Positions 14,048 through 18,594 are shown, counted from the stretch's first letter. The stretch is DNA of 42,601 nt from an uncultured Hyphomicrobiales bacterium (GCA_964625235.1 CAZVAZ010000003.1:1-42601); one strand, 5' to 3'. The notes: a model not told the origin generated them from the sequence alone. Numbers and translations: made by a program.

Positions 14048-14584
14048 TTAATCCTTGTTGCCGCCGCTAAGTCTCGCACCTGATACACGAGCACCAGACA
14101 CTCTGGCACCTGAAACTCTGGCACCTGATACCCGCGCGCCCGAAACCCTGGCGCCGCTGACGGCAACACCACCACCGCCGTCGCCTTCGGGATCAAGCAG
14201 AAGCTGGCTCAACGGTCCGCTGGACATATCCAGGCGAATTGAAAAGTCTGCCTGATCGTAATTCCAGGTTCTTAGATCACTGGAAAAATTAAAATCCTGC
14301 GCCGCCATAGCGGTGCTCGCAGCGGTTTTGTTGTCCAGTTTCTTGCCCGCTCCATGCACCAGAAGAATTGTCGGCACTTCCAGTTCACAATATTTACCCG
14401 CATAGCTGTAACCATATATCCGAGCAAAGCCGGCGTTGGCGCCGTTGTTAAGCTGGTCTGCGAGAAAGTGATTGTTGCCGGATGCTTTTGCCGGATCGTT
14501 TGCGCTGTTTTTTTGAATTTTCAGATCATCAATTTGAAAGCCGATGAGAACGATTTTCGACGCACTAAGTAAAGTTTCACCCAT
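14048..14584 (-). CDS. 178-aa protein with C-terminal (VSGAR)x6 repeat; candidate YcaO/TfuA substrate or precursor
   Basis: GGAGG RBS before ATG 14584. Globular-looking N-terminus, DPEGDGGGG linker, then repeats. Last gene of the ycaO-tfuA-peptidase run. The substrate role is inferred. Confidence 0.75.
   Translation of the reverse strand: MGETLLSASKIVLIGFQIDDLKIQKNSANDPAKASGNNHFLADQLNNGANAGFARIYGYSYAGKYCELEVPTILLVHGAGKKLDNKTAASTAMAAQDFNFSSDLRTWNYDQADFSIRLDMSSGPLSQLLLDPEGDGGGGVAVSGARVSGARVSGARVSGARVSGARVSGARLSGGNKD
14072..14161 (-). repeat. 15-bp-period coding repeat, 6 x VSGAR followed by LSGG
   Basis: Codons GTC AGC GGC GCC AGG / GTT TCG GGC GCG CGG / GTA TCA GGT GCC AGA / GTT TCA GGT GCC AGA / GTG TCT GGT GCT CGT / GTA TCA GGT GCG AGA; all differences are synonymous. 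Confidence 0.97.
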
Positions 14585-14749
14585 TTTTTCCTCCAGAATT
14601 TCACCCACCCCCATGGCCGGAATCAGTGCGAGCTTTATTAGATAATTATACTATCACAACATTAACTGACCTCATGCAAGTATCTTCTACCCAGGAAGAT
14701 GCGGTGGCATGGTGCAATCCAGGAACAGATGACTGTTCCCGGGCGTGTT

Positions 14750-15991: not shown

Positions 15992-17329
15992 TCAATTGTC
16001 TGCAACACATTGCACGTAAAGGTATTCGCGAACAAGCATTTGGTAAAATTCTTCTCGGCTTTCCAGGCCGATATCACTGATATGGGTGTCGATTTCCGCC
16101 GGCATTTCCTGGCCCATCCTATGGCAAAAATACCAGTTTAACAATGCTATTTGCGGCACCCCTATGTCTTCGGGGCGCAGATTTGAGCGCCCGGATTTTT
16201 TAAGCATTCTATCCTTGGACCCTGCACGTTGTGAGAGGCTGGAATAATCACCATTCAGTTTCAGAATTTTGAGCACACTGTGTGTAAAGGAGCGAGGTCT
16301 GGTATCAAGAATACTCCTGATCCGGATTTCTTCGTCCAGCAGATCTTCCAGTTCCCGGGCACTGAGGTCGTTTTGTTGCAACCATCGATCCAGGTCTTCG
16401 CGCTTAAGCAGATTTTGTTGTCGCCGGAATGTATTGACCTTGCTGGCGTGGACGTGACTTTCGATGGAAAGATGTTGGCGCACTGAATCCTGAACAGCGA
16501 ACTCACGTAAAAGCGCTGCATCGCGCGCTGCATTGAAGTTGTCCGGCTGCAGTCTCAATTCATCCAGAATAAACCGGGTGTTAATGCCGGTATGGGGGGT
16601 GCCGTGCCATTGCGAAACAGCGCGGTCCCACAGGTTGGTCCACTCAAAGTCGAACAATGCTGTGTGTGGTTCTCTGTCGGTTTTAACTGTCTCGCGCATC
16701 GCTTCCAGCATCGCCACTGCGTCGATATGCTTTTGATCAACACGGCTGTTCTGCAGCCAGGTTTCAAACTTCTGCGCGTTTGGGGCGTCTAGTACATGCG
16801 CGCCTGCAAATGCGATCAGCGCCTCCCATGTCCGTTCACTGTAGAGGCGTGATTTTGCGAATTCACATAACGCCTGCCTGTCAATTTCTGTCAGGATGTT
16901 TTCGCCGACAGCAAATTCCAGCGTGGCACGAATATTTACCATCGGTTCACACAGCGGTATAAAACCTAATTCAGCCGGCCCGTGAATGATGGCAACTTCG
17001 TCATCATCCTCCAGTTTTCCGCATCTGTAATCCTCGTAGATTCTACCCACACCTTTCATGCCGAATTCGGCAAGTTCTGCAGCCCGCAAAGCGCCGATAC
17101 TTGACGCCCCGAAGACGTGTACGCCTTGTGCCAGTGCCCACAGAATTTCCTTGTGCCAGATTGCCGCAACACCATTAAAGTAGCCATCGATGATGCCGAT
17201 GCACTGCGGTTCCAGGGCCATCGCGCGGTAGACGTCACCTTGAGCTGCAGGTGGCAGACAAACAGCATCAATAATCGAAAGTACGTCAGCTTCGGGTATG
17301 GTCGGGCCTATGAAGATCACAACTGTCAT
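15992..17329 (-). CDS. tfuA: TfuA-like protein with a C-terminal extension of about 220 aa
   Basis: VIFIGPT, LPPAAQGD, IGIIDGYF, IWHKEILWAL, GASSIGALRAAEL, GMKGVG, DDDEVAIIHGP, MVNIRATL; overlaps the ycaO stop (ATGA). Confidence 0.93.
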   Translation of the reverse strand: MTVVIFIGPTIPEADVLSIIDAVCLPPAAQGDVYRAMALEPQCIGIIDGYFNGVAAIWHKEILWALAQGVHVFGASSIGALRAAELAEFGMKGVGRIYEDYRCGKLEDDDEVAIIHGPAELGFIPLCEPMVNIRATLEFAVGENILTEIDRQALCEFAKSRLYSERTWEALIAFAGAHVLDAPNAQKFETWLQNSRVDQKHIDAVAMLEAMRETVKTDREPHTALFDFEWTNLWDRAVSQWHGTPHTGINTRFILDELRLQPDNFNAARDAALLREFAVQDSVRQHLSIESHVHASKVNTFRRQQNLLKREDLDRWLQQNDLSARELEDLLDEEIRIRSILDTRPRSFTHSVLKILKLNGDYSSLSQRAGSKDRMLKKSGRSNLRPEDIGVPQIALLNWYFCHRMGQEMPAEIDTHISDIGLESREEFYQMLVREYLYVQCVADN

Positions 17330-18594
17330 GTCAGGCGTTGCACTCTGGTGCCGGGAACATAATCATCATCGTCATGTGGTGCTTCGAGCCCCGGTATTAT
17401 CAGGCGCACCACCGGAATGTTGATGTCAGGGTTGGTCAGATCAATTGAAATAACCTGGTCAATGCCGATTGATGTCAACCCGGCGATCAGGCATTCGAGA
17501 TCATCGTTCAAAGTGCTGTTATCATGATTGGAGATATCCCCAAAACAGCGCTGAGGCGTCTCATTTGATATGAGATTGAGGCTTTGTTCATGTTTTTTTC
17601 TCAAATCGCTATCGTAAAACTCAAACTCCTGGAGATCGTCACGTGCACCGGATATATAGGTCAATCGTGTTTGAGCCGCTTCAGTGAGGGTGCGTGACAG
17701 GGCGATGGCTTTGCAGGGATGACATCCCGCGCCTGCACCAATATGTTCGGGCAAAGTACCGTCGCCGTTGACCACAAGTCCGTAAAAGGCCGGTACGCCA
17801 GCATCGCTTGTGGTTTCCCATACAGCCAGGTCCAGACCAGAATTTGTCAATCGTTCAATTATCTCGCAGCATTCCGGGTCATCGACAGTATTCAAAATTA
17901 ACCGGCCGGCAGCTCGGCTCGATGCAGGCAGGTGATGCCATATGGTCGTTGCATCGCGCTCGATCACTTCACAGATTGCATGACACTGGGCTTCCAGAAT
18001 ATGGTTTCCTGATGCCAGCCCGTTGGTGCTGCAATGAAAACAGCCATGTCCTGGCGGGCCGGGCTGAGTGTAATCCGTATGCACCATTTCAAATGGCACC
18101 CATATGTTCTGTTGATCAATCAGATTGATGCCCTCAATCCAAAGAATGCGTGTAGATGCGTTGAAAAATGAATCCCGGACCTGAGCAAGCGCGTCAGGGT
18201 CCGCAAGTTTGTGCCTGTGTGCCAGATCAGCAAAAGTTCCATAAATAACGGGCCGGGTGATGTGTTCGGCATGCCAGGTCTCGATTGATTCCATCAATGC
18301 GGATGCTTTTGCTGCATCCAGATCGAGACCTTTACCTTGTGAAACAGCCACGGAGCGTGCATTGGGCCGGGTGACCATCACAACCGGAATGCCGACACGG
18401 TCAAGTCCGGTTACAACACCAATACGGGTAATTCCCATTTTCCCTAAATGTGGTCGAGCCCGTTCAATCGTCTGGGCAGGAGTTAAAACCCGATGAGTTC
18501 CGGTGCTGTAGACCTTGATCGCGGGCCTGTCGGCATCAGACCGGGCTCCCTGATTTTTCCCGGCACAGTCCTGTTTCATTCTTCCATTTTCCAA
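17326..18594 (-). CDS. ycaO: YcaO-family ATP-dependent backbone-activating enzyme (TfuA-associated type)
   Basis: MGITRIGVVTGLDRVGIPV, SQGKG, SALMESIE, STNGLASGN, EVIERD, TEAAQTRLTYISGARDD, PGLE. Start is TTG 18594 or ATG 18579. Confidence 0.95.
   Translation of the reverse strand: MENGRMKQDCAGKNQGARSDADRPAIKVYSTGTHRVLTPAQTIERARPHLGKMGITRIGVVTGLDRVGIPVVMVTRPNARSVAVSQGKGLDLDAAKASALMESIETWHAEHITRPVIYGTFADLAHRHKLADPDALAQVRDSFFNASTRILWIEGINLIDQQNIWVPFEMVHTDYTQPGPPGHGCFHCSTNGLASGNHILEAQCHAICEVIERDATTIWHHLPASSRAAGRLILNTVDDPECCEIIERLTNSGLDLAVWETTSDAGVPAFYGLVVNGDGTLPEHIGAGAGCHPCKAIALSRTLTEAAQTRLTYISGARDDLQEFEFYDSDLRKKHEQSLNLISNETPQRCFGDISNHDNSTLNDDLECLIAGLTSIGIDQVISIDLTNPDINIPVVRLIIPGLEAPHDDDDYVPGTRVQRLT

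Follow-up and report, generated by a model that had tools for sequence, protein, structure and literature searches.

A conserved YcaO–TfuA–peptidase cassette with a candidate multi-core precursor in an uncultured Hyphomicrobiales bacterium

A 42,601-nucleotide stretch of DNA from an uncultured Hyphomicrobiales bacterium (GCA_964625235.1, CAZVAZ010000003.1:1-42601; the whole stretch is called the window here) was analyzed around four minus-strand genes at 14048-18594. By open reading frame (ORF) calling, these encode a YcaO enzyme, a TfuA protein, a protein with the motif HExxH and a protein whose tail repeats the pentapeptide VSGAR. Window positions 10743-18594 probably, though by no means certainly, make up one copy of a cassette that is conserved, has spread horizontally, and would serve a pathway resembling those of ribosomally made, post-translationally modified peptides (RiPPs). 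On the same joint reading, the 178-amino acid (aa) repeat protein would be the precursor, most likely giving many copies of one small peptide that is thioamidated, released by cleavage and acetylated. The cassette is real, widespread, and undescribed in the family libraries (Pfam, 2025; NCBIfam, June 2026) and literature searched. The four genes and their parts, all on the minus strand, are as follows.

17326-18594, minus strand: YcaO (PF02624), 422 aa from a TTG start, with an ATG 5 codons further in
15992-17329, minus strand: TfuA (PF07812), 445 aa, with the TfuA domain at aa 48-167 and a C-terminal extension of ~230 aa
14750-15985, minus strand: HExxH metallopeptidase-like protein, 411 aa, cytoplasmic and acidic, of thermolysin/fungalysin type by its predicted fold
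15428-15442, minus strand: HEIGH zinc-binding motif, aa 182-186 of the HExxH protein
14048-14584 (alternative start 14614), minus strand: repeat protein, 178 aa
14195-14584, minus strand: leader-like N-terminal domain of the repeat protein, aa 1-130
14162-14194, minus strand: Gly-rich linker DPEGDGGGGVA of the repeat protein, aa 131-141
14072-14161, minus strand: six spacer-less VSGAR units, the putative multi-core, aa 142-171
14048-14071, minus strand: follower LSGGNKD and stop codon of the repeat protein, from the translation

Gene content and linkage across genomes

An earlier note, made from this DNA alone, had described the layout of the four genes, and ORF calling and translation bore out every detail checked. 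The genes are co-oriented, the stop of ycaO and the start of tfuA share the letters ATGA, the TGA of tfuA is followed by 6 nt (aaaaag) and then by the ATG of the HExxH gene, and the translation of the repeat gene ends in ...DGGGGVA(VSGAR)6LSGGNKD. Because a GGAGG sits 7 nt ahead of the ATG at 14584, the 178-aa form is the likely product of the repeat gene.

To follow the genes across species, 75 loci were collected by a scan of species-representative genomes seeded with two family peptide patterns; 77 loci were compared in all. Most are from Hyphomicrobiales and Rhodobacterales (Ruegeria, Leisingera, Hoeflea, Nitratireductor, Mesorhizobium, and Paracoccus), and a few come from bins labelled Burkholderiales, Gammaproteobacteria, Actinomycetota, or Flavobacteriales. 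When the window proteins were used as tblastn queries against the 77 loci, the repeat protein was found in 76, the HExxH protein in 73, TfuA in 71, YcaO in 68, and the cyclase–TPR protein described below in 67. Upstream linkage was counted only where at least 4.5 kb of DNA preceded the repeat gene, and in 63 of the 65 loci of this kind YcaO, TfuA, and HExxH genes lay directly upstream of it. Closer to the window, none of four genomes of the same genus held the repeat protein, and two genomes from other families of the order carry it with the same gene order and an adjacent cyclase–TPR gene.

Because these loci had been seeded with motifs of the family itself, the linkage test was repeated on 300 genomes drawn evenly from the order. 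The N-terminal domain of the repeat protein was present in 17 of these genomes and TfuA in 40. In 15 of the 17, TfuA was found on the same contig, within ~3.5 kb of the domain; in the other two (G262 and G292) the contig ends on the side where the enzymes would lie. The linkage of the repeat protein with YcaO and TfuA is not due to chance, and homologues of the repeat protein do not occur mostly without ycaO and tfuA, the outcome that the earlier note had named as fatal to its proposal. Weak matches in G022, G027, and G032 (E ~6e-4) covered the repeat part only, inside long ORFs, and were set aside as low-complexity. The window TfuA is the only one in its genome.

The cassette or variants of it are present in cultured and model strains, among them Leisingera (for example L. 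daeponensis), Ruegeria, Hoeflea (H. poritis), Mesorhizobium (M. waimense), and Paracoccus, as well as plasmids pRL11 of Rhizobium johnstonii 3841 and p42c of Rhizobium etli CFN42. The Rhizobium plasmids carry unusual forms. On p42c (204226-208510; locus L087) and in Rhizobium beringeri (L094), genes for a cyclase, an HExxH protein, and a repeat protein occur together without YcaO or TfuA. The tail in this variant is an imperfect 7-mer (SRSGGxx), and on p42c a small hypothetical protein of 112 aa is next in line, for which no coding sequence is listed in L094. On pRL11 (271280-278408; L093), a cyclase–AAA protein, YcaO, a short TfuA, and an HExxH protein are accompanied by a 166-aa leader-like protein and a 131-aa hypothetical protein; the 166-aa protein has a single unrepeated tail and matches the N-domain profile with 84% hhalign probability over 45 columns. 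A TfuA locus on pSymB of Sinorhizobium meliloti 1021 was also considered and, having no other cassette genes, was taken to be unrelated.

Leader domain and repeat tail

Tandem repeats finder (TRF) reported a period-15 array at the tail of the repeat gene, with matches of just 74–76%. The six VSGAR units write V with 4 different codons, S with 4, G with 2, A with 3, and R with 4, mixing AGC with TCN for Ser and AGR with CGN for Arg, and the mean pairwise nucleotide identity between them is 0.68. As the six units are identical in peptide sequence yet only 68% identical in DNA, the repeat of the window is old and held by selection on the peptide, rather than the result of a recent duplication. 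The same holds across loci, where units identical within one protein have nucleotide identities of only 0.61–0.90, which argues that each unit is under purifying selection.

A profile of the N-terminal domain alone retrieved 560 clusters at 50% identity (E<=0.001), 430 of them with E<=1e-10, and for the whole repeat protein 49 relatives at 40–76% identity, every one with a repeat tail, were found in a protein database clustered at 90%. Invariant positions of the leader domain include M1, E3, L5, L6, S9, and ARIY. Most homologues have a Gly-rich stretch at the position of the linker, and a brief acidic follower rich in Gly, for example ...GD or ...SD, closes most of them. Three or more exact tandem units were present in 63 of the 77 locus proteins and in 77 of 148 database representatives; by eye, the remainder have mostly imperfect repeats, single units, or truncated ends, and some members, including the pRL11 protein, carry one unrepeated tail.

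Behind this conserved leader the tail is hypervariable between genomes, in line with the variation that the earlier note had proposed to look for. The copy number of the unit is free to vary, from 1 to 10 or more, and the unit itself changes in both sequence and period. Units of period 4 (GANL), 5 (VSGAR, VSGAK, VSGSR/K, VSGGR, VGGGK, GMSAR, GMNAR, GANAR, and GASVR), 6 (SGADLR, RADMVG, SRGDMT, and SRGAAA), 7 (SGAHARI, MARSSGM, and others), and 8 (RGMSAPGP) were observed. Two loci whose N-domain ends are identical differ in their tails, (VSGAK)7 in L014 and (VSGAR)3(VSGAK)2 in L015, from which it appears that copy number and the choice between Arg and Lys change quickly. Many repeat proteins reach 270–310 aa through a ~100-aa domain without a Pfam match that follows the first strand of the leader as an insertion (L027, L029, L035, L038, L042, L056, L061, L064, L065, L067, L069, P0021, P0025, and P0036).

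An AlphaFold2 (AF2) model of the repeat protein has a β-rich core in the leader, with a predicted local distance difference test score (pLDDT) of 60–87, and a tail predicted to be disordered (pLDDT <50). No Pfam or NCBIfam family matches the leader domain, nor was a usable match obtained in the ESM Atlas; a VIA-align comparison of the pLDDT-60 model with 48,161 chains gave no fold match, the best Z being 3.4 (GroES-like, not meaningful). The leader-domain protein and the HExxH protein are both labelled "hypothetical protein" in the source databases.

A conserved leader followed by a variable tail of identical units is consistent with a RiPP-like precursor holding several cores, but not with the fold of pentapeptide-repeat proteins. 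Small intergenic ORFs were examined as rival precursors: 141 ORFs of 20–99 aa were scanned over 10400-19300, and those lying more than half outside the seven cassette genes were checked for recurrence in the 77 loci. None was conserved in any locus, which leaves the repeat tail as the only precursor-like element of the cassette.

Modifying enzymes, peptidase and signalling partners

YcaO matches PF02624 over the full profile (4.8e-82, positions 1-325 of 325). Its best NCBIfam model is TIGR03266 (McrA-glycine thioamidation), with 237.1 bits against a cut-off of 365, whereas the SagD azoline model gave 143 bits, also below cut-off. For TfuA (PF07812, 2.9e-45), the best model is NF033432, "TfuA-related McrA-glycine thioamidation protein", at 213.2 bits against a cut-off of 235.2. 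By these profile scores, YcaO and TfuA are closest to the thioamidation models, yet are not members of the McrA-glycine equivalogs, and their assignment to the thioamidation type rather than the azoline type, as first proposed, is supported. Azoline (heterocycle) formation was rejected as the common chemistry of the family because many units, such as GMNAR, GANAR, VGGGK, and ANVRG, have neither Ser nor Thr nor Cys; thioamidation is not limited to particular residues. The accessible parts of two reports describe TfuA as a hydrolase of thiocarboxylated ThiS (PMC13063428, PMC8939145). No ThiS-family gene is present in the cassette, and four PF02597 matches were found elsewhere in the genome, which is 80% complete. 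A complex prediction for YcaO with the repeat protein scored 0.02 against a mark of 0.32, a result that counts neither for nor against binding.

The C-terminal extension of the window TfuA has no Pfam match (SGT1 at 0.032, not significant) and only faint NCBIfam matches to PpiC-related and NifM models (E ~1e-3). In a Hoeflea/Nitratireductor-like subgroup (L020, L023-L025, L028, L031, L036, L037, L040, L041, and L058), TfuA is about 255–270 aa long and does without the ~230-aa extension, which is therefore dispensable. The same genome encodes a second YcaO of 452 aa (G000 contig C1:63115-64044; L002 1399-2757, minus strand), which scores 140 bits with SagD versus 88 with the thioamidation model; it has no TfuA, and its two neighbours have no NCBIfam match.

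The HExxH protein matched no Pfam or NCBIfam family at E<=0.01, and a PDB sequence search with its profile returned spurious repeat-protein matches only. Its AF2 model (pLDDT 89.4) was compared with the PDB by Foldseek, in which M36 and M4 proteases were the top matches (E 2e-6 to 1e-4, TM 0.5–0.63), including 4k90 (2.2e-6, TMq 0.50) and thermolysin 4tln (1.5e-5, TMt 0.63); 29 matches reached E<=0.001, at ~10–15% identity. The predicted structure thus has the thermolysin/fungalysin fold, and the protein is described here as thermolysin-fold rather than filed in M4 or M36. It has no hydrophobic segment, signal peptide, or propeptide, and its 63 Asp and Glu outnumber its 31 Lys and Arg. Of 73 locus copies, 70 retain HExxH and three are truncated, and the motifs NFDV[IV]AHExGH and G[FY]HESAAD are present in the same number, with the Glu of the second motif in all 70. 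By analogy with gluzincins, we take this Glu to be the putative third zinc ligand. The window copy reads GFHDSAGD at this point (15356-15376, aa 204-210 region), with Asp where the 70 intact copies have Glu. The family is large, with 1577 clusters at 90% identity and 151 plasmid records; one match on a Bacillus mycoides plasmid, annotated as an M36 peptidase, has an unrelated context and was discounted. After the bond to be cut, thermolysin-type enzymes favour a hydrophobic residue, and most units hold exactly one hydrophobic residue, so that cuts at R|V are suggested for the window protein.

The earlier note had treated the four genes as the unit, and in this it fell short. The cassette is larger, and a convergent operon of GNAT and cyclase–TPR genes belongs to it, as does, in the 14 of 77 loci that such genes flank, a Crp-like regulator. 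Among ORFs of at least 100 aa in window 4000-28000, only seven genes (and shadow ORFs) recur across loci, namely the four above and the following three.

12243-14033, plus strand: class III nucleotide cyclase with a CadC/HilA-like α/β region and TPRs, 596 aa (PF00211 and TPR families)
11550-12185, plus strand: GNAT acetyltransferase of the RimJ/RimL-like Acetyltransf_3 type (PF13302, 2.6e-15)
10743-11435, plus strand: Crp/Fnr-type regulator with a cyclic nucleotide (cNMP)-binding domain and a helix-turn-helix (PF00027, 5e-17; PF13545, 2.8e-12)

In the window, the cyclase–TPR gene is convergent with the repeat gene, and the GNAT gene is directly upstream of the cyclase gene. The cyclase domain matches PF00211 with 48.2 bits (1.3e-12; cut-off 21.9), and its motifs AD..GY, GD, and NxAxR show conservation of at least 90% across 57 homologues; we take these to hold the metal-binding Asp pair and the Asn-Arg motif. 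In place of GD the window copy has AD, keeping the Asp. Its middle region has no significant match in Pfam (CadC_C1 at 0.0073), and in NCBIfam only weak ones to TIGR04510 (54.3 bits versus 400), TIGR03903 (17 versus 706), CadC, and HilA. Counting loci that also have 3.5 kb of DNA downstream, a cyclase–TPR gene accompanies the cassette in 51 of 56, being convergent in 34, co-oriented downstream in 13, and upstream in 4. Two cyclase architectures occupy the same place, cyclase–TPR or zinc ribbon–cyclase–AAA–TPR. In the most distant loci and on pRL11, a different cyclase of about 1000–1170 aa precedes ycaO. By Pfam, the copies in L074 and L076 (~1150 aa) contain a zinc ribbon, the cyclase domain, and AAA_16, to which L076 adds a TPR region of MalT-like type. 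For the pRL11 copy (993 aa) there is only the annotation, which gives an AAA family ATPase and GO terms for cyclic nucleotides.

The Acetyltransf_3-type GNAT was found in 37-38 of the 77 loci, always adjoining the cyclase gene, co-oriented with it and just upstream. Another GNAT type stands in for it in 16 further loci, so that a GNAT of either type is present in 53 of 77; in the subgroup with a co-oriented downstream cyclase gene, this other type (Acetyltransf_1/7) is encoded between that gene and the repeat gene. That two GNAT types and two cyclase architectures fill the same places argues for acetylation and the cyclase as components of the system rather than bystanders. Their company suggests that RiPP chemistry and cNMP signalling are linked, of which no description was found in the literature searched. 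As stated at the outset by the earlier note, no exporter, ThiS, or dehydrogenase (azoline oxidase) gene was found in the conserved block by Pfam and by recurrence over loci. A hydropathy scan gave no signal peptide or membrane segment in any of the seven cassette proteins, and by charge count the three enzymes are acidic and the repeat tail basic.

Proposed pathway, alternatives and related systems

In the pathway that we favour, the leader domain of ~130 aa would dock the precursor. YcaO would activate backbone amides with ATP, TfuA would bring sulfur from a thiocarboxylated ThiS-type carrier encoded elsewhere, and each VSGAR unit would gain a thioamide. The cytoplasmic thermolysin-fold peptidase would then cut the tail, most plausibly on the N-terminal side of the hydrophobic residue of each unit (R|V), to release up to six identical thioamidated pentapeptides, whose new N-termini the RimJ-like GNAT may acetylate, as in the N-acetylated thiovarsolins. 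The calculated [M+H]+ is 489.2780 for VSGAR, 505.2551 for its thio form, and 547.2657 for the N-acetyl thio form; peptides cut in other registers of the unit would be isobaric with these. The cyclase–TPR protein and the Crp-like regulator could couple the pathway to cyclic-nucleotide signalling, either by controlling it or by sensing its product. Two earlier proposals are carried over in part: the repeat tail, put forward as the substrate, does behave as a hypervariable multi-core, and the HExxH protein, put forward as its peptidase, does have a predicted protease fold. Gene content and order, linkage, selection on the units, and the fold assignments are what the analysis shows, whereas docking, thioamidation, the cut sites, acetylation, and the part played by the cyclase are inferred.

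Several observations weigh against this pathway. The family assignment of the enzymes supports a thioamidation type, the chemistry itself being proposed by analogy at the family level. The 75 pattern-seeded loci over-represent close relatives, and of the 65 loci with sufficient upstream DNA two are exceptions, L075 without the peptidase and L077 without YcaO and TfuA. TfuA is absent from all 250,948 bp of the complete R. etli plasmid p42c, and YcaO from its 15.2-kb locus; the R. beringeri locus, also on a complete plasmid, has, by annotation, the same content; a thioamide-free form of the system seems to exist, and thioamidation would not be obligatory for every family member. The Asp in place of Glu in the window peptidase possibly weakens or changes the third zinc ligand, and the leader-domain model is only moderately confident (pLDDT 60). 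Finally, since the cassette has no exporter and all seven proteins look cytoplasmic, a secreted product is not indicated; with no exporter linked, a role inside the cell is just as plausible as secretion.

An intracellular role is central to a different account, in which the thioamidated tail remains attached to the protein, or trimming is confined to the leader, and the protease-resistant, basic tail acts inside the cell, for example as a ligand or regulator of the TPR–cyclase, the peptidase serving activation or turnover without release of units. It would explain why the cassette proteins have neither signal peptides nor transmembrane segments, why no exporter is conserved, and why the cyclase–TPR gene is so tightly linked (51 of 56 loci); the leader is also large and conserved, like a folded protein, and YcaO enzymes that act on whole proteins, McrA and uL16, are on record in the accessible part of PMC13063428. 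We nevertheless consider it unlikely, because identical units under synonymous divergence, copy numbers from 1 to 10+, and periods of 4–8 are a better fit to a stoichiometric source of identical small products, because a dedicated endopeptidase is nearly always there (73 of 77 loci), and because the GNAT is hard to explain without new N-termini, though Lys acetylation is conceivable. Improbable in turn is an account centred on the protease, in which the peptidase, the repeat protein, and the cyclase make plain short peptides and the system can work without the modification by YcaO and TfuA, which are an optional extra. The Rhizobium plasmids without YcaO and TfuA and the size of the HExxH family (1577 clusters, 151 plasmid records) speak for it, but the absence of YcaO and TfuA there holds for the plasmid or locus compared. 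Moreover, TfuA was adjacent in every determinable case of the dereplicated sample (15 of 15), all three enzymes were present in 63 of 65 loci, and ycaO and tfuA of the window are translationally coupled in the same operon as the rest.

The remaining two accounts take the tail itself out of the chemistry. If the repeat protein were an accessory (a scaffold, immunity protein, or chaperone), the true precursor would be an unrecognised small ORF or a protein elsewhere. The form of the proposed precursor, multi-core and with a leader of 130–250 aa, is indeed atypical for a RiPP, but the scanned small ORFs recur in 0 of 77 loci and nothing in the cassette other than the hypervariable tail, with its conserved domain in front, looks like a precursor, so that we regard this account as very improbable. 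Hardly credible is the idea that the tail is an ordinary, structural PF00805 pentapeptide-repeat β-helix whose place beside YcaO–TfuA is functionally meaningless. PF00805 does match weakly (17.7 bits in the window against a cut-off of 20.2, with homologues at 24.1 (G038) and 21.2 passing narrowly), one database source names a fragment "YjbI with pentapeptide repeats", and in the register ARVSG the unit resembles what we take to be the PF00805 consensus, A(D/N)LxG. Many members, however, have a period of 4, 6, 7, or 8, and the tail is modelled as disordered, which together exclude such a helix as the common feature of the family; six units would in any case make only 1.5 helical turns, and the linkage to the enzymes is near-universal.

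For the favoured pathway, the nearest relatives in description are the thiovarsolins of Streptomyces varsoviensis. According to the accessible part of PMC6511847, on which the following points rest, these are N-acetylated, thioamidated APR tripeptides derived from VarA repeats, for which VarA, YcaO, and TfuA suffice. In Ac-APR the thioamide is between Pro and Arg, and the compounds were traced by a neutral loss of H2S (33.99) and by absorbance near 270 nm. As in the window, YcaO–TfuA acts on a repeating-core precursor (none to five repeats in their family), and the products are very short N-acetylated thioamidated peptides with a C-terminal Arg, the window counterpart being a prediction. The VarA repeats are imperfect, whereas those of the window are exact and spacer-less. 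The var cluster is actinobacterial and is described without a protease or acetyltransferase gene, proteolysis and N-acetylation being attributed to host enzymes, whereas a thermolysin-fold peptidase and a GNAT would be cluster-encoded here. The var cluster has a heme-oxygenase-like VarO, of which there is no counterpart among the conserved cassette genes, and the cassette has a leader domain of 130–250 aa and a cyclase–TPR protein. The core repeats also differ, with APR or GPR in the thiovarsolin family and VSGAR, without Pro, in the window; only L075 has a ...PGPR... unit. The earlier statement that no described family has such a multi-core thus stands for the precursor family itself, of which no description was found, and not for the multi-core idea, for which the thiovarsolins are a precedent.

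Other systems share single features. The McrA thioglycine system (TIGR03266 and NF033432) provides the best-scoring models and the same expected chemistry, but the cassette scores below the equivalog cut-offs, has no McrA and a bacterial host, and encodes its substrate in the operon. Thioamitides and thiopeptides likewise undergo TfuA-dependent backbone thioamidation of a ribosomal precursor, as far as the accessible parts of PMC6511847 and PMC8120280 describe; theirs are short single-core precursors with many tailoring enzymes and transporters, none of which were found in the cassette. Cyanobactins and fungal dikaritins/phomopsin, a comparison drawn in the accessible part of PMC6511847, also have several cores per precursor released by proteases, but their cores are split by recognition sequences and the chemistry is macrocyclisation or cross-linking. 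M4 thermolysin and M36 fungalysin share with the cassette peptidase the fold, HExxH, and a downstream Glu-x-x-x-Asp-like motif, whereas the cassette peptidase has no Pfam M4/M36 match, signal peptide, or propeptide, and the window copy has Asp for Glu. TIGR04510, "putative peptide modification system cyclase", and TIGR03903, "TOMM system kinase/cyclase fusion protein", are similar in tying a class III cyclase with TPR-like regions to a peptide-modification cassette; the scores here are far below their cut-offs, and the architectures and partner enzymes are different. To our knowledge, the role of cyclases of these two types has not been established.

In the main text of the open-access literature, no description of the precursor family or of a YcaO–TfuA–peptidase–cyclase cassette was found, although supplementary Rhizobium gene-cluster families of PMC8120280 may depict the cassette. 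We rate the thioamide RiPP with a repeated core as known already; the large leader, the exact spacer-less cores, the own peptidase and GNAT, and the nucleotide-cyclase partner are what is unusual here. The accessible part of PMC8120280 describes TfuA-linked YcaO clusters as very common in Proteobacteria and the TfuA–YcaO thioamidated RiPPs then known as all coming from Actinobacteria. Of the 40 genomes with TfuA in the even sample, 15 carry it in this cassette, so that a concrete candidate substrate can now be named for a sizeable fraction of the orphan enzymes. A protein of 170–310 aa would probably escape precursor searches designed for short peptides, and the cultured and model carriers make the prediction directly testable.

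Oligopeptide sensing by TPR proteins is a feature of the RNPP family of Firmicutes (e.g. Rap–Phr). A doubtful, more far-reaching extension of the pathway is that the cassette is a self-contained circuit from peptide to cyclic nucleotide, in which thioamidated, N-acetylated peptides of 5–8 residues would be ligands of the CadC-like/TPR sensor of the cyclase, and cNMP would act via the Crp-type regulator. Were this so, the circuit would be a Gram-negative, thioamide-marked counterpart of the Firmicutes system and would give a function to many orphan cyclase–TPR proteins of rhizobia and roseobacters.

Two neighbouring regions of the window flank the cassette. At 8426-10528 (plus strand), just outside it, is a gene for a 700-aa M28-family peptidase, which recurs in 0 of 77 loci and is for that reason probably unrelated. 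On the other side, ycaO is flanked at 18907-21768 by genes for a pyrroline-5-carboxylate (P5C)-reductase-like protein, a class III aminotransferase, and a helix-turn-helix–cupin regulator; since none of these recurs with the cassette, its right-hand edge is placed near 18600.

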